This document shows positions 6,164 to 15,167 of a stretch of 64,000 nt of DNA, one piece after another. The DNA comes from Alphaproteobacteria bacterium (GTDB taxonomy: Bacteria > Pseudomonadota > Alphaproteobacteria > JACAEB01), in contig JACKLE010000007.1 of NCBI GenBank assembly GCA_024236075.1, positions 2,235-66,234 of the forward strand. The letters run 5' to 3'. The notes under the pieces were generated by a model that worked only from the letters and a program-made list of their open reading frames with translations, ran no database searches and was not told the DNA's origin. Both the position numbers and the translations under genes were made by a program. How positions within the stretch are numbered: the first letter of the stretch is position 1; every line of letters starts with the position of its first letter.

Positions 6164-6471
6164 GCCGCTCTCTTCGCCGGCCGGGTGCGCCCCCCGGCAC
6201 GCATGGACTCCCAATCGAGGGGCCCAGCCTAGTCGTCGAAGATTTAATGCGGCGTTATCCAAGACGAGCTTTGCTCGCGCCCTGGGGAGCACTGACGGAA
6301 ATCCGCCGTGCAGCTTGGCGAGACCGCTCTCGCGCTTTATAAAGCAGCCAGTTGTCGGGGGTAGACTTCACGACGGGGTTGTCGACCGCCTGCTTCCGCC
6401 GGACGGACGGGCGGCTGAACCGGGCTCTAAGGCCCTCGAAGCGTCGAGGGGCGCGGGCGGGCCGGTGGAGG

Positions 6472-6981
6472 ATGCGGGTGAAACCTAGAGATTTCAGGGA
6501 CTGGCGCAAGACGCTGAAGCTGTCCCAGAAGGAAGCCGCGGACGCGCTCGGGCTGAAGCGCCGCGTGGTCCAATATTACGAGAAGGGCGAGAGGAACGGC
6601 GAGGAGGTGAAAATTCCTCGCACGGTTCAGCTCGCCTGCTGGGCCGTCTGGAAGGGCCACACCGGCAATTGGGACGGCCCCAGCCTCGCCGAGCACGGCA
6701 GCGAGGGCAACAAGAAGCGCAAGAAGAAGAAGGACGGCAAGAAGCGCGACAAGGAGCGCGATCTCCAGATCGCGATGGCCGCCAACGGCGCCGAGATGGC
6801 CGTGGCCGCCGAGGAGCCGGTCCGCAAGTCCAAGGTCAAGCACAAGGACAAGTCGGGCAAGAAGACGCGCGCCCCCGAGGAGGCCGTCCTCGACGGCGCG
6901 CGCCGGCGCAAGGCCCGCCAGGGAAGCGGACAGCTCAAGCGCCGCAAGGGCCAGGGCGGCGGCAAAGCCGCCGCCGAATAG
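6472..6981 (+). CDS. Helix-turn-helix (XRE-like) protein with a lysine-rich, disordered C-terminal tail
   Basis: MRVKPRDFRDWRKTLKLSQKEAADALGLKRRVVQYYEKGER (HTH), followed by NKKRKKKKDGKKRDKERD...KSKVKHKDKSGKKTR. Confidence 0.65.
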   Translation: MRVKPRDFRDWRKTLKLSQKEAADALGLKRRVVQYYEKGERNGEEVKIPRTVQLACWAVWKGHTGNWDGPSLAEHGSEGNKKRKKKKDGKKRDKERDLQIAMAANGAEMAVAAEEPVRKSKVKHKDKSGKKTRAPEEAVLDGARRRKARQGSGQLKRRKGQGGGKAAAE

Positions 6982-7059
6982 GGCCGAGCCGGCGGCAAGG
7001 CCGCCGCCGAATAAGGCCAAGCCGGCGGCAAGGCCGCCGCCGAATAGAGCGGAGCCGGC
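6955..7059. repeat. 33-bp tandem repeat, three copies plus a partial fourth, each containing a GC hairpin and an in-frame stop codon
   Basis: Unit GCCGGCGGCAAGGCCGCCGCCGAATARRGCSRA at 6955, 6988 and 7021. Copy 1 forms the last codons and stop of the 6472..6981 gene. Confidence 0.85.
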
Positions 7060-7741: not shown

Positions 7742-9013
7742 TGCCCTACCCCCTCTGAAGTGGTCCTGGGACTATGATAGTCGGACCCTGAGAGTGGAGG
7801 CTTGTGATGCCGCGATGAAGGCAAACGGCAGAAGAAATATTGGGAAGCTGCGTGAGGTTGAGGTCCGGATCGGCCGGGGCATGACGGTTCAAGTGGTGAT
7901 CCGTGGGATCGGCGTGACCGAGCAGACCTACTACCGCTGGCGCAAAGAATATGGCGGCCTGAAGCTGGATCAGGCCAAACGGTTGAAGGACCTTGAGAGA
8001 GAGAGAGTAGAGAACGCCCGGCTGAAGAAAGCCGTCGCCGATCTGACACTCGACAAGATGATTTTGACTGAGGCCGCCTCGGGAAACTGGCAGGGCCCTC
8101 GCGCCGCCGGAAGTTCATCGACCATGCCTGCGAGAAGCTCGGTGTCTCCGGACGCCGGGCGTGCCAGGCGGTCGGCCAGCATCGCTCGACGCAGTGGCGA
8201 GCGCCGAGGAAGGCCGACGACGGAGACACGCCGACGGCGACGATCATACGCCTCGCGACGCGCTTCGGGCGTTACGGCTAACGACGCATCACGGCGTTGT
8301 TGAGAGCTGAAGGCTGGCGGGTGAACCACAAGCGTGTTGCGCGCATCTGGCGGCGCGAGAGCCTGAAAGTGCCGGCGCGACACAAGAAGCGCGGCCGTCT
8401 CTGGCTCAATGACGGCTCGTGCATTCGCTTGCGGCCAATGCATCGCAACCATGTCTGGGCCTATGACTTCGTCGAGGACAGAACGCGCGACGGGCGCAAG
8501 ATCCGCATGCTCACGGTGATCGACGAGTTCACGCGGGAATGCCTTGCGATCGAAGTGAACCGCCGCCTTAACAGCCAGGACGTTCTCGCAGTTCTGGCGC
8601 GGCTGTTCCTTGCGTGCGGCGTCCCTGGACATATTCGCAGCGACAATGGCTCCGAGTTCACAGCGAAGGCCGTCAGGAAGTGGCTCGCAATCATGAACGC
8701 GAAGACGCTCTACATCGAACCCGGAAGCCCATGGGAGAACGGCTACAATGAATCGTTCAACGGGAAATTGCGCGACGAATGTCTTAACACGGAGCTATTT
8801 TACTCGCTTCGCGAGGCGTAGATCCTCATCGAGGACTGGCGGCGTGAATATAATGCGATCCGACCCCATTCCTCGCTCGGATATCGTCCGCCGGCGCCGG
8901 AAACCTTTCAGCCGGCCAATCCGGCCTGCGCAATCTGAAAGCTCCAACCGGATCAGCCTTCCGCCGAAGCACGCTTTTCTGTTACATAGAACCCGGCTGC
9001 GCATACGGGGGCA
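7742..9013 (+). mobile_element. IS3-family insertion sequence, copy 1, transposase inactivated
   Basis: The left end is TGCCCTACCCCCTCTGAAGTGG and the right end is ...ACGGGGGCA (TG...CA termini). orfA contains GVTEQTYYRWRKEYGG...RLKDLERE...LKKAVADLTLDK. orfB contains [17 protein letters not shown]...[16 protein letters not shown]...[14 protein letters not shown]...IRSDNGSEF...[21 protein letters not shown]...RPHSSLGYRPPAPE. Confidence 0.85.
7815..8938 (+). pseudogene. IS3-family transposase orfAB with premature stops
   Basis: In the orfB frame, GRYG*RRITALL has a TAA near 8278 where GYRRI is expected, and SLREA*ILIEDWRR has a TAG at 8819..8821. Confidence 0.8.
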
Positions 9014-9121: not shown

Positions 9122-9337
9122 ATGACAACAGAATCAGGCTCGAAAGGTAGCCGCAAAACGAACCTCGTCTACCTGCAACTGCTGGCGCAAGGTGAGGCTT
9201 TGAACCCGAGACACGCGGAAATGCCAAGTTCTGAGGAGGGTCTTGCGCTCGTGAGAGCCTTCTATGGAATTCGACATCGCGCGGATCGAGCGAAGGTCAT
9301 CGAGCTGGCACAAAAGCTTTTGAAGATTGCCAACTGA
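9122..9337 (+). CDS. Small hypothetical protein (71 aa), paralogue of the next ORF
   Basis: AT-richer ORF. It shares the motif EMPSxEEGLxLxRAFxxIRxxxDRxxVxELAxxLL with ORF 9350..9586. Confidence 0.4.
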   Translation: MTTESGSKGSRKTNLVYLQLLAQGEALNPRHAEMPSSEEGLALVRAFYGIRHRADRAKVIELAQKLLKIAN

Positions 9338-9349
9338 CCGCAGGAACAT

Positions 9350-9586
9350 TTGCGACGAAGGCCCTCATCTCGAAGCGAGGTCAATGTGACAGAGGACAAC
9401 GAGAAGGGGCCACGACGTGTTTGGCTTGCATCCGAATTCGACATTGACCCCGCGCCGAACATTGAAATGCCTTCGCCAGAGGAAGGATTGGAACTTCTAC
9501 GAGCGTTCTTCCGTATTAGGACAAAGAAAGATAGGGTTGCCGTCGTCGAACTGGCTCGGTCGCTTTTGGGTGAAAGCACACGTTGA
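9350..9586 (+). CDS. Small hypothetical protein (78 aa or shorter), paralogue of the previous ORF
   Basis: ...IEMPSPEEGLELLRAFFRIRTKKDRVAVVELARSLL aligns with the C-terminal half of ORF 9122..9337. The start codon is uncertain. Confidence 0.4.
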   Translation: MRRRPSSRSEVNVTEDNEKGPRRVWLASEFDIDPAPNIEMPSPEEGLELLRAFFRIRTKKDRVAVVELARSLLGESTR

Positions 9587-9671: not shown

Positions 9672-9905
9672 TCAATTGAGTTTGAGTTTGCTGTCTCCAA
9701 TGTCAGTAACAAGATGAGCGCCATCGCTATCGTCTGTTAGTCTGAGTTCGCGAACGGCCTCTAGCCGCGCCATTTCGAGAAGGTAGGCCAATAGCCCGAG
9801 GTCACACTTTCCCGCTAGTGCTTTCAGAGCAGTGGTGAGTTCGGAAATGTGAACCAAAGCGTTGTGACGTTCGCATTCGTTTTGCCATTCATATTCTGAT
9901 GACAT
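9672..9905 (-). CDS. Small hypothetical protein (77 aa) downstream of the dioxygenase gene
   Basis: ORF on the same strand, 35 nt downstream of the phyH-like stop, with the same AT-richer composition. No recognisable motif. Confidence 0.35.
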   Translation of the reverse strand: MSSEYEWQNECERHNALVHISELTTALKALAGKCDLGLLAYLLEMARLEAVRELRLTDDSDGAHLVTDIGDSKLKLN

Positions 9906-9940: not shown

Positions 9941-10840
9941 CTATGCTGCCGCGCGCCCGTCGCTGGGCTTGAGGAAACCGCTGAGAATTCTGTCCATCTC
10001 GGGCGACAGGACGTCGTCTGCGGAGATATCAGCCGATCCCTGCAGCGGCAGTAGGTCCATTGGATCTCGGCATTCAAATAGCCCGAGGTTGGGGCGGTGA
10101 GCGGCATAGCCAATCAACGAGGCTAGTTCCGGTGGCAGATTGCGAGCGACATCAAGAGGCACTGCGAGGTATTGATTTTCATACTGACGGAGCCAGCCCA
10201 GATTGTAGCCCATTACAACTCCGATCCGGGGTTCGTTGGAGTTGTTTGCTCCCGCTCCGTGGACAGTCGAACCAAGATAGAGCAGGGCGCTGCCCGGCTG
10301 CATCTCAGCTGCCACGGGTTCAATATCCCTTTGTGCGTTTGTTGCACTCCATAGGTGGCTTCCCGGGACGACGTGGGTCCCGCCGTTCTCCCTTGTGAAC
10401 TTCGTAAGGGCCCACATCACGTTCACCATGGGCTCGATCGCGGCAGGACAGTACGGATACATCCCGCGGTCCCTATGCAGGACCTGCGCGATTTCGCCTG
10501 GCAACACGGCGATTGCCTGAGTGATGTGCAGCTGAAACCGCTCACATTGCGTGAGAGTCAGCGACATGGTTCTCAGGATCGATGCTTGCAGAGCGAGAAC
10601 GTGCGTAGACGGACTCTTGGCGACGAGTCCGTTTACACGTTTCGTATTTAGTCCAACAAAGATGCCCTGACCTGGCGGAGTCTTCTCCAGTAGAGGCGCT
10701 ATCTCCTTTTCAATGGCGTCCATCTGCGCTGCCGGCGTTAAGCCCTCGACAATGACACAGCCTGATTGGACTAGTTGGGCCCGGATATCCTCGGGCGGCG
10801 CATCGGCGCCGAGGCGAGGAACGCCCTGACTCGCTGTCAT
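9941..10840 (-). CDS. Phytanoyl-CoA dioxygenase (PhyH) family Fe(II)/2-oxoglutarate-dependent oxygenase
   Basis: 299 aa with an HxD motif (QVLHRDRG), a distal His (GSTVHGAGAN) and a general PhyH-like layout (GTHVVPGSHLW). Its ATG at 10838..10840 directly abuts the luxI stop at 10841..10843. Confidence 0.8.
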   Translation of the reverse strand: MTASQGVPRLGADAPPEDIRAQLVQSGCVIVEGLTPAAQMDAIEKEIAPLLEKTPPGQGIFVGLNTKRVNGLVAKSPSTHVLALQASILRTMSLTLTQCERFQLHITQAIAVLPGEIAQVLHRDRGMYPYCPAAIEPMVNVMWALTKFTRENGGTHVVPGSHLWSATNAQRDIEPVAAEMQPGSALLYLGSTVHGAGANNSNEPRIGVVMGYNLGWLRQYENQYLAVPLDVARNLPPELASLIGYAAHRPNLGLFECRDPMDLLPLQGSADISADDVLSPEMDRILSGFLKPSDGRAAA

Positions 10841-11515
10841 CTAGGCCGCCCGCTGCTGGTGCTTCTTGAGGACGTCGGCATGAACGGTGCGCGCGGCAAT
10901 GATGCCTTCCGCCGATACGATGGGTTCCTTCAAGCCCAGGAATGCTCGAACGGACTCAAGGCTGAGGTCTTCAAAGTCGACTTTGACGCCTATGACCTCC
11001 AGGTCACCCATGGTCACGGGAAGACCCATCGCGGTTGCCTTGAAGCCGGTCGCCACCATTCTCTGAAAGCGCCAGAGCTCGACCACGGCTGTCACGCCCT
11101 TCAATCCGAGTGCGCAGGCGGTTTCCAGCCACCCGATGTGAATTTCGATCGTGACCGGGTTGGGTCGGCCGAGCTTCTTTGTCTCCGGCGCAACGACGAT
11201 ACGGCTGACGTCATAGATCTCCGGATCGCTGGGAACTCCATAGCGATCAAAAAGGTTCGGAAAATGCTTGGCTGACAGCGTCGTCAGATTTGACGCAGCG
11301 AGTCGAACGCAACCGACAACTCCATCGCATTCGGCACGCGTGCTGACAACGTAGATTGTGTGTGCGTGGTCACTTTCGTCAATGTCGCGGCCATCGGGCT
11401 TGTAGACCTCTTCCCAACCCATCTGTTCAAAGAGGACTCGATGACGAAGGCGAAACATCTGGTCGAATTTGACTTCGTGTTCATGACGGTTGCCGCTCGT
11501 TAGGATTGTGATCAT
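10841..11515 (-). CDS. luxI: Acyl-homoserine-lactone synthase (LuxI family)
   Basis: MITILTSGNRHEHEVKFDQMFRLRHRVLFEQMGWEEVYKPDGRDIDESDHAHTIYVV...VSRIVVAP matches the autoinducer-synthase signature RxRxxVFxxxxGW...E.D.(F/S)D. A GGAGGG Shine-Dalgarno precedes the ATG at 11515. Confidence 0.9.
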   Translation of the reverse strand: MITILTSGNRHEHEVKFDQMFRLRHRVLFEQMGWEEVYKPDGRDIDESDHAHTIYVVSTRAECDGVVGCVRLAASNLTTLSAKHFPNLFDRYGVPSDPEIYDVSRIVVAPETKKLGRPNPVTIEIHIGWLETACALGLKGVTAVVELWRFQRMVATGFKATAMGLPVTMGDLEVIGVKVDFEDLSLESVRAFLGLKEPIVSAEGIIAARTVHADVLKKHQQRAA

Positions 11516-11599
11516 CAAACCCTCCATGAATTGTAGACGGAGGGAATTGGACGCGAACCGATGGCGTTCGGCCATTCTCTGAACGGAGGTAATTTGTGT

Positions 11600-12322
11600 T
11601 CAGATTCGGAGGAGGCGATGCCTCAACGCCTCGATCACCGCGGATATTCGTCGCTTTGCGCCGAGCTTTCGCTTCGCGTTCTCGACGTGCATATGGACAG
11701 TGGTCTCGCTAATCGTAAGAATTTCTCCGATCTCGGAATCTGATCGCCCTGTTGCAACCCAAGCTAAGATTTCGCGCTCGCGTCCGGTTAGGTTTGGTGC
11801 CTGCTCAATCAACGGATTTGCGAGGCTCAGGATTCGTGCATGTGTGTAGACACCGAGCAAACGGAGTATTTGCGAAACAGATGGGTCGTCATCGACGCGT
11901 GGGCCCGCAAATGCCGCTGCAGCGAAGTAGCCGTTAGGCCCTAGAATTGGAAATGCGTAGCCATCCGAGAGGCCAAACTCCTTCCCCTCGTTCAATATCT
12001 GCCATCCCTTGGTCCTTGGCCTTGTCTTTTCACGAATTTCTTTCCACGGGATACCACCCCCCCCTTCCATCAATGTCGTAACTACTGGATCAAAATATCT
12101 ATATTTATTTACGAAATACCTATTTCTCCATTCTAAATCATAGTTCAACATCCACCCGTGATCGCGTGATACTAGTCCTGCAAGGGGGCATACGACAAAA
12201 TATTCTATACCGAACGCATTTAAATTTTTTTCGATCAACGCCTTAAGTTCTGTTTCTGTCGTGGCACCTTCCATGTTCTCAAGAAGATCGAAGAATTTCT
12301 TTTTTGCGGTCGCGTCTGACAT
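11600..12322 (-). CDS. luxR: LuxR-family quorum-sensing transcriptional regulator (autoinducer-binding domain plus GerE HTH)
   Basis: 240 aa. The N-terminal domain carries the conserved W...Y...DP...W...G pattern (EWRNRYFVNKYRYFDPV, GIPW). The C-terminus reads LTGREREILAWVATGRSDSEIGEILTISETTVHMHVENAKRKLGA. Confidence 0.9.
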   Translation of the reverse strand: MSDATAKKKFFDLLENMEGATTETELKALIEKNLNAFGIEYFVVCPLAGLVSRDHGWMLNYDLEWRNRYFVNKYRYFDPVVTTLMEGGGGIPWKEIREKTRPRTKGWQILNEGKEFGLSDGYAFPILGPNGYFAAAAFAGPRVDDDPSVSQILRLLGVYTHARILSLANPLIEQAPNLTGREREILAWVATGRSDSEIGEILTISETTVHMHVENAKRKLGAKRRISAVIEALRHRLLRI

Positions 12323-12408: not shown

Positions 12409-12440
12409 AGTCCGTATGATGAACGTTTACATGACGGACT
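12409..12440. promoter_or_regulatory. Imperfect 32-bp palindrome upstream of luxR, candidate operator
   Basis: AGTCCGTATGATGAACGTTTACATGACGGACT has half-sites AGTCCGT / ACGGACT and lies about 90 nt upstream of the luxR start. Confidence 0.3.
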
Positions 12441-12471: not shown

Positions 12472-13317
12472 GGTAGGGGACTCATTTGATCCACGCGACG
12501 ACGATGGCTGCGAGAGCGATTGCGGAGATGTAGTTTTGCGCGAGACGGTCATATCGCGTTGCGATGCGCCGCCAGTTTTTGAGCTTGCAGAACAGTCTCT
12601 CCACGACGTTGCGTCGTTTGTAGGCCGTTTCGTCGAGCGGATAGGGGACGGTGCGGGAGGCCGTTGAGGGAATGACGGCCTTGATCGTTCTGCTCTTGAG
12701 GTAGGAGCGAAAATGCTCCGCGTCATAGGCTCTATCGGCAAGCAGCCGCTTTGGGGCCAGGACCGCGTCGACGAGCGGCTTGGCCATGGTGATGTCGGCG
12801 ACATTGCCCGGCGTCAGGGCGAAGGCGACCGGCCTGCCGCAATCATCGGCCAGACAGTGGATTTTGCTTGTTCTGCCGCCGCGCGAGCGCCCAATCGCTT
12901 GCGCTTCCTCCCCCTTTTTCCGCCTGCGGCGGAGCGGTGGGCTTTGACATGGCTGCTATCGAGCGACAGCTCTTCGGGGACAGGTCCTGCGGCCGCCATT
13001 TTGGCGAACAGGCGTTGCCAGACCCCTCGGGCAGACCATCGATTGTAGCGGTTGTAGATCGTCGTATAGGGTCCGTACTCGGACGGACAATCCCGCCACC
13101 GGCATCCGGTCTTGAGAACATGCAGGATGCCGCTCATCACGCGCCGGTCATCCACACGCGGCTTGCCCGGCTTTCCGCGCGGCAGATGCGGGTCGATGAG
13201 AGCCCAGGCTTCGTCGGACAGCCAAAACAGATGCGACATCTCGGTCTCCTCGGGTAGTCGAACCCAAAAGGAAACTGATTTGCACAAAGAATCAATGCTT
13301 TGTATGAGTTCCCAACC
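12472..13317 (-). mobile_element. IS5-family (IS427-group-like) insertion sequence, apparently intact
   Basis: The terminal inverted repeats are GGTAGGGGACTCAT (left) and, as the reverse complement of the right end, GGTTGGGAACTCAT. The flanks are cTA and TAg, consistent with insertion into CTAG with TA duplication. It encodes a two-frame transposase. Confidence 0.85.
12482..13239 (-). CDS. IS5-family transposase (orfA-orfB joined by a putative programmed -1 frameshift)
   Basis: orfA reads MSHLFWLSDEAWALIDPHLPRGKPGKPRVDDRRVMSGILHVLKTGCRWRDCP...HVKAHRSAAGGK. At GGAAAAAGGGGG the other frame continues ...QAIGRSRGGRTSKIHCLADDCGRPVAFALTPGNVADITMAKPLV...LFCKLKNWRRIATRYDRL. Confidence 0.8.
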
Positions 13318-13576
13318 TAGGGCGTACTTCGCAATTGTTGCTGCGTTCGGCGGGTTCATTTGGTCCGTGAGGGTGGTGCAGATGGGACAGGTTGAGACCC
13401 GTGAGCGCAGCTGGCGATTGACGCGCACGTCGAGCATACCCATTCGCATGCCGCCGCTCGGGTGGTCGCGCTTCAGCGGGTCGACGACGAGGAGGGTGCA
13501 GTCGTTTGGACGCGCATCCTAAGAGCGACTGTTTGGCTTTCAGATGGCAGCGATCACGGCGAATTGCAGCGACTGT

Positions 13577-13870: not shown

Positions 13871-15167
13871 TGCCCTACCCCTTCTGAAGTGGTCCTGGGA
13901 CTATGATAGTCGGACCCTGAGAGAGGAGGCTTGTGATGCCGCGATGAAGGCATACGGCAGAAGAAATTATTGGGAAGCTGCGTGAGGTTGAGGTCCGGAT
14001 CGGCCGGGGCATGACGGTTCAAGTGGTGATCCGTGGGATCGGCGTGACCGAGCAGACCTACTACCGCTGGCGCAAAGAATATGGCGGCCCGAAGCTGGAT
14101 CAGGTCAAGCGGCTGAAGGACCTTGAGAGAGAGAACAGTCGGCTGAAGCGGGCTGTTGCCGATCTCACGCTCTATGCTCTGATCCTGAAAGAAGCCGAAA
14201 AGGGAAACTTCTAAGCCCCGCGCGTCGCCGGCGAGCGATCCGGTATGTCCGCGAGACCATCTGCGTATCGGAGCGTCGGGCATGCCGGGTATTCGGTCAG
14301 CATTGCGCGACCCAACGTAAGATCGCCAGGACGCCTGACGATGAAGACGCCTTGGCGGGCGACATCATCGAGCTGGCGAAGACCTATGGACGCAATGGCT
14401 ACCGTCGGATCACGGCCCTACTCAAAGAGGCGGGCTGGGCCGTGAACCACAAGCGGGTCGAACGGATCTGGCGGCGTGAGGGGCTAAGAGCGCCTGCGAG
14501 ACAGCGCAAACGGGGTCGGCTCTGGCTCGACGATGGGTCTTGCCTCCGGCTGAGACCGGAATGCCGCAACCACGTTTGGACGTATGATCTTGTCGAGGAC
14601 CGCACCCAAGAGGGAAAGAAGATCCGCATGCTCACCGTCATCGATTCGTTCAGCCACACATGCCTGGCTATCACCGTCGAACGGTGCCTGAACAGCGGCA
14701 ACGTGCTCGACACCTTCGCGGATCTCTTCCTCGAGCATGGGCCGCCCAAGCACATTCGTCCGGACAACGGCCTAGAGTTCATTGCGACCGCCGTGCGGAA
14801 TGGCTCGCCCATATCGGCGTGAAGACGCTCTACATCGAACCGGGCTCACCTTGGGAGAACGGGTACAACGAGTCCTTCAACGGGAAGACTCCGCGATGAG
14901 CTGCTGAGCGGAGAGATCTTCTCGACGCTGAAAGAGGCCCAGACCCTGATCGAAGCATGGCGCCGTCACTACAACACCGTCAGGCCTCACAGCGCCTTGG
15001 GATACAGCCCGCCCGCGCCAGGGGCCTTCGCTCCCATGATCTTCCCAACAGCTCGACCCAAGGAGCTGGGTCTCCTGTCCGTCCTTGAGGTCGTAGAGGT
15101 CGAGCATCTCGCCGATCTCGGGATGGCCATGCCGAGCGTTCCCAACCAAGTTTCAACATGGGGGGCA
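13871..15167 (+). mobile_element. IS3-family insertion sequence, copy 2, transposase inactivated by several frameshifts
   Basis: The left end is TGCCCTACCCCTTCTGAAGTGG and the right end is ...CATGGGGGGCA. Transposase similarity is spread over at least 4 ORF fragments (13944.., 14011..14214, 14352..14822, 14660..14899, 14997..) in different frames. A 1-bp insertion (AAATTATTGGG versus AAATATTGGG in copy 1) truncates orfA after 13 codons. Confidence 0.85.

Follow-up and report, generated by a model that had tools for sequence, protein, structure and literature searches.

Genes for LuxI-type synthases of acyl-homoserine lactones (AHLs) have been found next to genes annotated as phyH in several sphingomonads. 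The linkage was reported for four of five Novosphingobium novI/novR pairs (PMC3704786), then, as a 'topology T' with the order luxR-luxR-luxI-phyH-X-virB, also for Sphingomonas, Sphingopyxis and Sphingobium (PMC4288048), and was described again for three N. subterraneum novI loci with novR-novI-phyH synteny, where the reaction of PhyH was called 'yet-to-be described' (PMC5012321, 2016). In sphingomonads, novI loci have also been located on plasmids and close to transposases (PMC4288048, PMC5012321). Two of these papers, PMC3704786 and PMC5012321, credit Hao et al. (2010) with metagenomic clones of this kind and with the idea that phyH is regulated by quorum sensing (QS). We found no paper that assigns a reaction to a luxI-linked PhyH, and for about 15 years the linkage has been an unexplained footnote of sphingomonad genomics. 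Here we report on a luxR-luxI-dioxygenase cassette in a window of 64,000 nucleotides, by which we mean the whole stretch of DNA that was analysed, from the metagenome-assembled genome (MAG) of an unclassified alphaproteobacterium (contig JACKLE010000007.1, positions 2,235 to 66,234).

The dioxygenase of this cassette belongs to a specialised oxygenase clade that is physically coupled to luxI, with reading frames that usually overlap or abut, in a conserved and mobile three-gene module. The cassette is real and conserved, and the type of synteny is known. Because papers from 2010 to 2016 had already described luxI next to phyH in Sphingomonadaceae and in metagenomic clones (PMC3704786, PMC4288048, PMC5012321), the novelty implied by the first-pass annotation of the window was overstated; the window copy belongs to the published group, as a divergent member. 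Our analysis adds a diagnostic sequence signature of the linked enzymes, the occurrence of the linkage outside Sphingomonadaceae, in Rhodospirillales, unclassified Alphaproteobacteria and betaproteobacterial plasmids, variants of the cassette with a cytochrome P450 and, at one locus, also an EamA-type permease, and the identification of cultured, tractable carriers: N. subterraneum DSM 12447, Sphingobium indicum UT26S (pCHQ1), Blastomonas sp. RAC04, Caenispirillum salinarum AK4 and Rhodothalassium salexigens DSM 2132.

The cassette and its recurrence

The three genes lie in series, in the same direction, on the minus strand of the window: luxR, encoding an AHL-receptor transcription factor (11600..12322, 240 residues; Pfam Autoind_bind 85 bits and GerE 62 bits), luxI, encoding an AHL synthase (10841..11515, 224 residues; Autoind_synth 62 bits), and the gene for a PhyH-fold Fe(II)/2-oxoglutarate (2OG) dioxygenase of the luxI-linked clade (9941..10840, 299 residues; PhyH 96 bits). 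The 84-nucleotide spacer between luxR and luxI (11516..11599, minus strand) holds the Shine-Dalgarno sequence of luxI. Our list of open reading frames (ORFs) gives luxI as 10841-11575; we took the shorter start at 11515 because GGAGGG precedes this ATG by 5 nucleotides and because the resulting 224-residue protein is identical to one deposited at NCBI (P0121, from an 'Alphaproteobacteria bacterium' MAG, 117-kb contig). The window dioxygenase is identical to a deposited protein as well. At the junction (10838..10843) the minus strand reads GGCGGCCTAG, then ATGACAGCGA, so that the luxI stop codon TAG (10843-10841) abuts the ATG of the dioxygenase gene (10840-10838) with a spacer of zero, exactly as the first-pass annotation had it. 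We found no terminator-like site between luxR, luxI and the dioxygenase gene; the two terminator-like sites that were detected fall within coding sequence, in a number at chance level, and promoter-like and terminator-like sites occur at chance frequency. The zero spacer and the lack of an intervening terminator-like site fit co-transcription of the three genes as a predicted operon, and translational coupling between luxI and the dioxygenase gene is probable, as had also been proposed.

The first-pass proposal of an oxidatively tailored AHL signal was to fall if the gene pair was conserved in no other genome. The pair is in fact conserved: when the genomic context of ten of the best dioxygenase homologues (44-52% identity) was looked up, all ten had luxR-luxI-dioxygenase, in unrelated samples and with unrelated flanks, in some cases separated by a small ORF or a P450 gene. 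The layout of the window, in which the dioxygenase gene is 3′ of luxI and co-directional with it and luxR lies upstream, recurs at loci L001, L002, L006, L087, L089 and L178-L184. A tblastn search of plasmids returned 90 records, mostly from Sphingobium, Sphingomonas and Novosphingobium. On Blastomonas pBSY18_2, Sphingobium indicum pCHQ1 and a Variovorax plasmid (L087, L088, L089) the luxI and dioxygenase frames overlap by the four nucleotides ATGA, while relatives without an overlap have spacers of 11-76 nucleotides. The window dioxygenase is 40-44% identical, over its full length, to the Blastomonas, Sphingobium, Variovorax and Methylocystis proteins. Linked loci were also met in the cultured Caenispirillum salinarum and Rhodothalassium salexigens DSM 2132 during genome scans, which covered a one-genome-per-species set and metagenomes of the Joint Genome Institute. 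The scans were seeded with the peptide WLRQxENQY, which many linked members lack (the sphingomonad version is WLKPYE), so the 160 scanned loci over-sample unlinked clades and the linked fractions given below are not estimates of prevalence.

The order of the genes can change while their proximity is kept: at L022, L028, L092 and L111 the orientation is divergent, and at L093, L096 and L179 a P450 gene is inserted between luxI and the dioxygenase gene. The flanks of about 25 loci are unrelated, and no gene other than luxR, luxI and the dioxygenase gene is constant across them. On the Methylocystis iwaonis plasmid pSS37A-Re-2 (L090 3468-4933) luxR and the 5′ portion of luxI have been lost through an IS21 insertion, and the dioxygenase gene stands intact behind the luxI remnant, a natural 'orphan' copy. 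To judge from these sequence contexts, the cassette moves on plasmids and between insertion sequence (IS) elements.

The P450 genes, found at four loci, follow luxI directly and adjoin the dioxygenase gene (L093 2529-3983; L096 1607-3010; L022 2407-3795, minus strand; L179 2067-3491). Their products match the Pfam P450 family at 1e-79 to 1e-89 (L093, L096, L022), are orthologous, with 33-39% identity among copies, and are distantly related to CYP102 (E about 1e-36 to 1e-39). The L179 operon runs luxR, luxI, small ORF, P450, dioxygenase and EamA-family permease, with overlapping gene ends; the permease gene overlaps the stop codon of the dioxygenase gene, and this is the only P450 locus with EamA. 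Judged by gene order, this combination of P450 and exporter looks like a small biosynthetic operon.

In the best neighbour-joining (NJ) tree, of 166 family members, every linked dioxygenase falls in one basal group. Among the members that could be tested, 18 of 20 in this group are linked to luxI as against 0 of 106 elsewhere (Fisher p = 7e-20), and within the group the window dioxygenase and that of L001 form a separate sub-branch (bootstrap 0.87). Since all ten of the closest homologues looked up are linked and the Fisher probability is this low, the pairing of luxI with the dioxygenase gene is beyond chance. Independently of the tree, the linked enzymes share a motif in the C-terminal region, GY-xx-H-x-P-x-LG, where other clades have G-x-Y-A-L-G; in the window dioxygenase it reads YAAHRPNLG (residues 245-253). 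Motif-positive loci comprise 18 linked and three unlinked cases and motif-negative loci 0 linked and 105 unlinked, in a table that is partly post hoc, as the motif was relaxed after three controls had been inspected. The stricter form, H[RK]P[NH]LG, was dropped as too narrow when the supposed negatives P0003, P0010 and P0021, which carry HRPQLG, HEPNLG or HSPNLG, proved to be luxI-linked. Pairwise distances of LuxI, LuxR and dioxygenase co-vary over 17 cassettes (Mantel r 0.65-0.66, p = 2e-4), a signal that is mostly shallow (r = 0.21 for deep pairs). Of the three proteins the dioxygenase has diverged least (mean p-distance 0.57 versus 0.73 for both LuxI and LuxR), which would fit an enzyme that recognises an invariant portion of the AHL scaffold.

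The encoded proteins

The window dioxygenase has a PhyH domain (PF05721) that scores 96 bits against a cut-off of 22, the HxD...H iron triad, the 2OG-anchoring arginine and, in its model, a double-stranded beta-helix fold. H122-R-D124, H194 and R205 are invariant in an alignment of 89 homologous sequences, which points to a 2-His-1-carboxylate triad of the hydroxylase or oxidase type, in agreement with the earlier call of a hydroxylase. The SyrB2-like halogenase variant of Fe(II)/2OG enzymes (HxA/G) was ruled out, the carboxylate D124 being present and invariant. The AlphaFold (AF2) model (predicted local distance difference test, pLDDT, 93.9) superimposes on TlxJ, PrhA, AsqJ and their kin with template modelling (TM) scores of 0.74-0.81, the highest being for PrhA and AndA. 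By sequence too, the nearest PDB entries are the fungal TlxJ, PrhA, AusE, AsqJ, AndA, SptF, OkaE and FtmOx1 (E 1e-30 to 1e-16), and the set of 42 PDB matches (E <= 0.01) consists entirely of unnamed oxygenases and tailoring dioxygenases of the fungal type. An orthologue of genuine phytanoyl-CoA 2-hydroxylase or ectoine hydroxylase (PHYH/EctD) was considered and rejected, neither being among these 42 matches. Because both enzymes are absent from the sequence matches, 'PhyH' and 'phytanoyl-CoA dioxygenase' are family labels here and not functional assignments.

The window LuxI scores 62.2 bits against a cut-off of 24 for Autoind_synth (PF00765) and is, by sequence, a predicted acyl-homoserine lactone (acyl-HSL) synthase. 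Compared with the common LuxI numbering (R24, F28, W34, D45/D48, R68, S103-R104), it keeps the conserved N-terminal and active-site residues with a small deviation, Leu at 28 and Phe at 29; R24, W34, D46, D49, R71 and R105 are invariant in our LuxI alignment (A2). The first-pass annotation had asked whether this LuxI belongs with the acyl-CoA or the acyl-acyl carrier protein (ACP) synthases. Among solved structures it is nearest to the acyl-CoA enzymes BjaI (E 1.5e-23) and RpaI (E 6e-23), ahead of the acyl-ACP enzymes TofI (E 4e-8), LasI (E 2e-5) and EsaI (E 0.03); that part of a CoA-type placement stands, and the part that depends on the substrate platform does not. The Trp-Trp 'indole platform' (BjaI W142/W143, RpaI W146/W147) is said to underlie the preference for acyl-CoA (PMC8188788). 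The window LuxI has half of it, W-R in ELWRF, with the first Trp kept and the second replaced by Arg. Other linked LuxIs have K-Y, R-F, H-F or G-W at this position; Trp-Trp occurs in BjaI-like sequences only, and the true BjaI-like LuxIs that carry it (P0126, P0130) have no dioxygenase neighbour. The Blastomonas LuxI is equally close to TofI and RpaI. We therefore do not class the window LuxI among the CoA-type synthases.

The LuxIs that travel with a dioxygenase are very diverse and span much of the LuxI family; that of the window is 45% identical to the L001 LuxI and 22-29% identical to other linked LuxIs, and in the LuxI NJ tree the deep nodes are too weak to settle monophyly of the linked LuxIs. 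As a common denominator of the linked systems, the 'unusual CoA-derived acyl group' that had been suggested for the window is contradicted by this spread and by the sphingomonad NovI enzymes, which make ordinary C8, 3-OH-C8 and 3-OH-C10 AHLs without the dioxygenase (PMC5012321, PMC11674143).

The canonical residues of the LuxR ligand domain (W, Y, D-P, W, G) are retained in 12 aligned cassette LuxRs, and the ligand is therefore expected to keep the HSL-amide core. The window LuxR is 39% identical to that of L001. As a separate observation, the window LuxI ends in -RAA (C-terminus at 10844-10849), and 11 of the 13 LuxIs in alignment A2 end in -AA, with one more ending in -A; such ends resemble the end of the ssrA degradation tag and may mark the synthases for proteolysis.

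Possible roles of the dioxygenase

We favour the reading that luxR, luxI and the dioxygenase gene make up a self-contained, horizontally mobile QS cassette whose oxygenase oxidises an AHL or its acyl precursor, and on the sequence evidence we give it a probability of roughly 0.45. AHL-bound LuxR would autoinduce one transcript covering luxI and the oxygenase gene, and ribosomes ending luxI would reinitiate on the latter, each translation of LuxI then being followed by translation of the oxygenase. With O2 and 2OG, the oxygenase would then oxidise the acyl-HSL that LuxI has produced, hydroxylating it in the most likely case and perhaps desaturating it; the acyl-thioester precursor would be a less likely substrate. 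The product would be an oxidised AHL congener, to which the P450 of some relatives would add a second oxidation and which an EamA-type permease may export. The signal itself is the suggested substrate because the module is minimal and self-contained, because the oxygenase is more conserved than LuxI and LuxR, which determine specificity, because its structural kin are small-molecule tailoring enzymes, and because a second oxygenase and an exporter occur in some operons. The further step within the tailoring reading, that the oxidised product is the cognate signal of the co-encoded LuxR and not a modulated form of the signal, is tentative and less probable. We would be similarly hesitant about the broadest form of the proposal, in which the dioxygenases of luxI operons, joined at times by a P450 and an EamA exporter, would turn ordinary acyl-HSLs into an undescribed class of oxidised signals, true LuxR ligands, on spreading plasmids and IS-bounded islands of Alpha- and Betaproteobacteria. 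Candidate products of this class would be AHLs with a hydroxyl group or a double bond at a position other than C3, or with a hydroxyl group on the lactone ring.

The diversity of AHLs is thought to arise almost entirely from the acyl donor chosen by LuxI. If the tailoring reading is true, post-synthetic tailoring would be a second source of signal specificity beside the acyl donor. Maturation of the signal would depend on O2, Fe(II) and 2OG, and quorum sensing could thus be conditional on oxygen, iron and central-carbon status.

Several observations weigh against tailoring of the signal. Although the subclades are robust, the NJ bootstrap for monophyly of the linked dioxygenases is weak (0.19), and no luxI occurs in the flanking sequence available for the motif-positive L008, L011 and L060. 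In the unlinked sister clades, which include SAR86, Actinomycetes, Binatia and Caulobacterales, the recurrent neighbours are fatty-acyl genes, namely enoyl-CoA hydratase at 15 loci, AMP-ligase (acyl-CoA synthetase) at nine and acyl-CoA dehydrogenase at seven; alpha/beta-hydrolases and TetR regulators also recur there. These neighbourhoods hint that the wider family handles fatty-acyl substrates, and would favour an acyl-CoA substrate over the finished AHL. NovI without phyH makes C8, C10, C12 and 3-OH-C8 to C14 AHLs, and when A. tumefaciens or E. coli expresses NovI of Novosphingobium strains by itself, the dominant AHLs are those of the wild type, 3-OH-C8, 3-OH-C10 and C8 (PMC5012321, PMC11674143); therefore the 3-OH group needs no dioxygenase, and neither do the major standard AHLs. 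For strain Rr2-17, E. coli with novI alone made the dominant wild-type species, phyH in Rr2-17 not being confirmed, and two TraR-active spots in the native host were left without identity (PMC5012321, PMC11674143). The mass spectrometry in these studies targeted standard AHLs.

Much of this would also suit a dioxygenase that is a QS-controlled output enzyme, the first regulon gene on the autoinduced luxI transcript, acting at high cell density on a non-signal substrate such as an environmental lipid or the CoA thioester of a branched or unusual fatty acid. The sufficiency of NovI for the dominant wild-type AHLs and the acyl-CoA metabolism genes beside unlinked relatives agree with such a role, as does L008, where the motif-positive dioxygenase gene without luxI adjoins a CoA-transferase gene, and regulation of phyH by QS is the published speculation attributed to Hao et al. 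in the papers cited above. We nevertheless consider an output enzyme doubtful. No gene supplying a substrate or using a product travels with the cassette, whose sole constant partners over about 25 loci are luxR and luxI, and the enzymes form a dedicated clade with signature residues of its own, nearly always beside luxI (the 18 linked and three unlinked motif-positive loci). The overlap of luxI stop and dioxygenase start implies stoichiometric co-production, and the P450 and exporter genes are placed between or after luxI and the dioxygenase gene, as in a pathway.

The coupling to luxI would be the same if the dioxygenase served built-in turnover, its oxidation making the AHL less active or more labile as negative feedback or reset, with a signal half-life dependent on O2, Fe and 2OG. 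Oxidation by P450 BM-3 lowers the activity of AHLs, and the luxI-linked P450s are distant relatives of this CYP102 enzyme. We regard turnover as clearly unlikely all the same: a synthase translationally coupled to the inactivator of its own product would run a futile cycle, two different oxygenases and an exporter in one operon look biosynthetic, and, to our knowledge, the known quorum-quenching lactonases and acylases are not encoded inside luxI operons. In favour of turnover, N. pentaromativorans US6-1 can degrade AHLs, reportedly on entering stationary phase, by an enzyme that was not named (PMC6163740). A chance juxtaposition by IS-mediated scrambling, with no functional link, might be suspected from the position of the cassette between two IS3 copies in a low-GC island, with an IS5-family element abutting luxR, and is refuted by the recurrence of the pair in all ten of the closest homologues looked up and on plasmids and genomes of several orders (p = 7e-20).

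Genomic setting and related systems

The island that carries the cassette is bounded on the left by an IS3-family element (copy A, 7742..8821, plus strand; HTH_Tnp_1 and rve/rve_3) and on the right by a second one (copy B, 13871..14899, plus strand), whose transposase seems to be split, with HTH_Tnp_1, HTH_21, rve and rve_3 on separate ORFs. The two copies are direct repeats, 97% identical over the first ~265 nucleotides and diverged beyond, and repeat families D1, D2 and D4 recur at a spacing of 6.13 kb between copies A and B. The ~6 kb between them have a guanine-cytosine (GC) content of 47-60% versus 70-77% outside. The QS cassette thus lies in a low-GC island with a composite-transposon-like arrangement, which agrees with the published sphingomonad novI loci near transposases and on plasmids. 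Directly 5′ of luxR is an IS5/IS4-family element (12482..13449, minus strand; DUF4096 and DDE_Tnp_1_2, two ORFs with an apparent frameshift), the insertion of which may have displaced the native luxR promoter region. A search for a lux box gave no convincing site: the luxR-luxI spacer has no inverted repeat, and only an imperfect palindrome, AGTCCGT-N18-ACGGACT (12409..12440), a candidate operator, was found about 90-120 nucleotides 5′ of luxR.

A 77-residue ORF without a Pfam family (9672..9905, minus strand), taken from the ORF list and located 35 nucleotides 3′ of the dioxygenase gene, may be the operon's final gene, though this is uncertain; it showed no detectable similarity to the small ORFs located after the cassette at other loci. 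Just 3′ of the cassette, on the opposite strand, are two small tandem paralogous ORFs of 71 (9122-9337, plus) and 78 residues (9350-9586, plus) that share MPS-EEGL-L-RAF-IR-DR-V-ELA-LL and match no Pfam family. Further left, three tandem GC-rich repeats with a 33-nucleotide period (6949-7059) lie at the end of, and beyond, an HTH_3-containing ORF (6352-6981).

Among related cassettes, a GntR or MarR regulator gene accompanies L087, L088 and L180. At L180 (5087-7876), which is of the sphingomonad type, the order luxR-luxI-dioxygenase-GntR is followed by three precursor genes for subterisin-type lasso peptides and by maturation genes (Transglut_core3, Asn_synthase). At L002 (6915-7577; also L003-L005) a highly divergent, 220-residue LuxI-like ORF lies directly 3′ of the dioxygenase gene, giving luxR-luxI-dioxygenase-luxI2; it scores 71 bits against the LuxI profile built here and has no Pfam match. 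Small ORFs also occur after luxI. One of 82 residues overlaps the stop codon of BjaI-like luxI genes that encode Trp-Trp and have no dioxygenase neighbour (L174 3220-3468; L175 4632-4880; L176 2312-2560; L177 1059-1307), with 63% identity between the L174 and L175 copies and no match in Pfam. Another, of ~100 residues, follows luxI at the divergently oriented L111 (1111-1425, minus strand) and L028 (2936-3241, minus strand); the two are 33% identical, share LHYLE-E---GL-E---ILK and match no Pfam family. Apart from the L111/L028 and L174/L175 pairs, no mutual homology was detectable among the small ORFs downstream of cassettes.

Several described systems share features with the window locus. 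P450 BM-3 (CYP102) hydroxylates the acyl chain of AHLs and lowers their signalling activity; it is a precedent for an oxygenase acting on AHLs and a distant relative of the luxI-linked P450s, but it is not encoded with luxI, its action is regarded as quorum quenching, and the window itself has no P450. Human peroxisomal PHYH belongs to, and gave its name to, the same Pfam family (PF05721) and shares the cofactor chemistry, whereas among its PDB matches the window dioxygenase shows no specific similarity to phytanoyl-CoA hydroxylase. The fungal enzymes TlxJ, AusE, PrhA, AndA, AsqJ, SptF, FtmOx1 and OkaE resemble it in sequence, predicted fold and HxD...H triad and tailor free small molecules within biosynthetic gene clusters; unlike it, they act on meroterpenoid or alkaloid substrates with no link to acyl-HSLs, and their identity to it is 24-32%. 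BjaI and RpaI, whose products are isovaleryl-HSL and p-coumaroyl-HSL, respectively, are the best solved-structure matches of the window LuxI, and their 'ETWW' region aligns with its ELWRF, but the second platform Trp is Arg in the window protein and LuxIs with both Trp residues lack a dioxygenase neighbour.

The closest described system is novR-novI-phyH of the sphingomonads. The window locus has the same gene order and orientation, the overlap or abutment of luxI stop and dioxygenase start, a full-length homologous dioxygenase with the H-x-P-x-LG motif, and the frequent association with plasmids or transposases. It differs in its host, an unclassified, high-GC alphaproteobacterial MAG and not a sphingomonad, in its LuxI, which is 22-25% identical to the sphingomonad-type LuxIs and far nearer to BjaI and RpaI than to TofI, and in its dioxygenase, which together with that of L001 occupies a sub-branch of its own.

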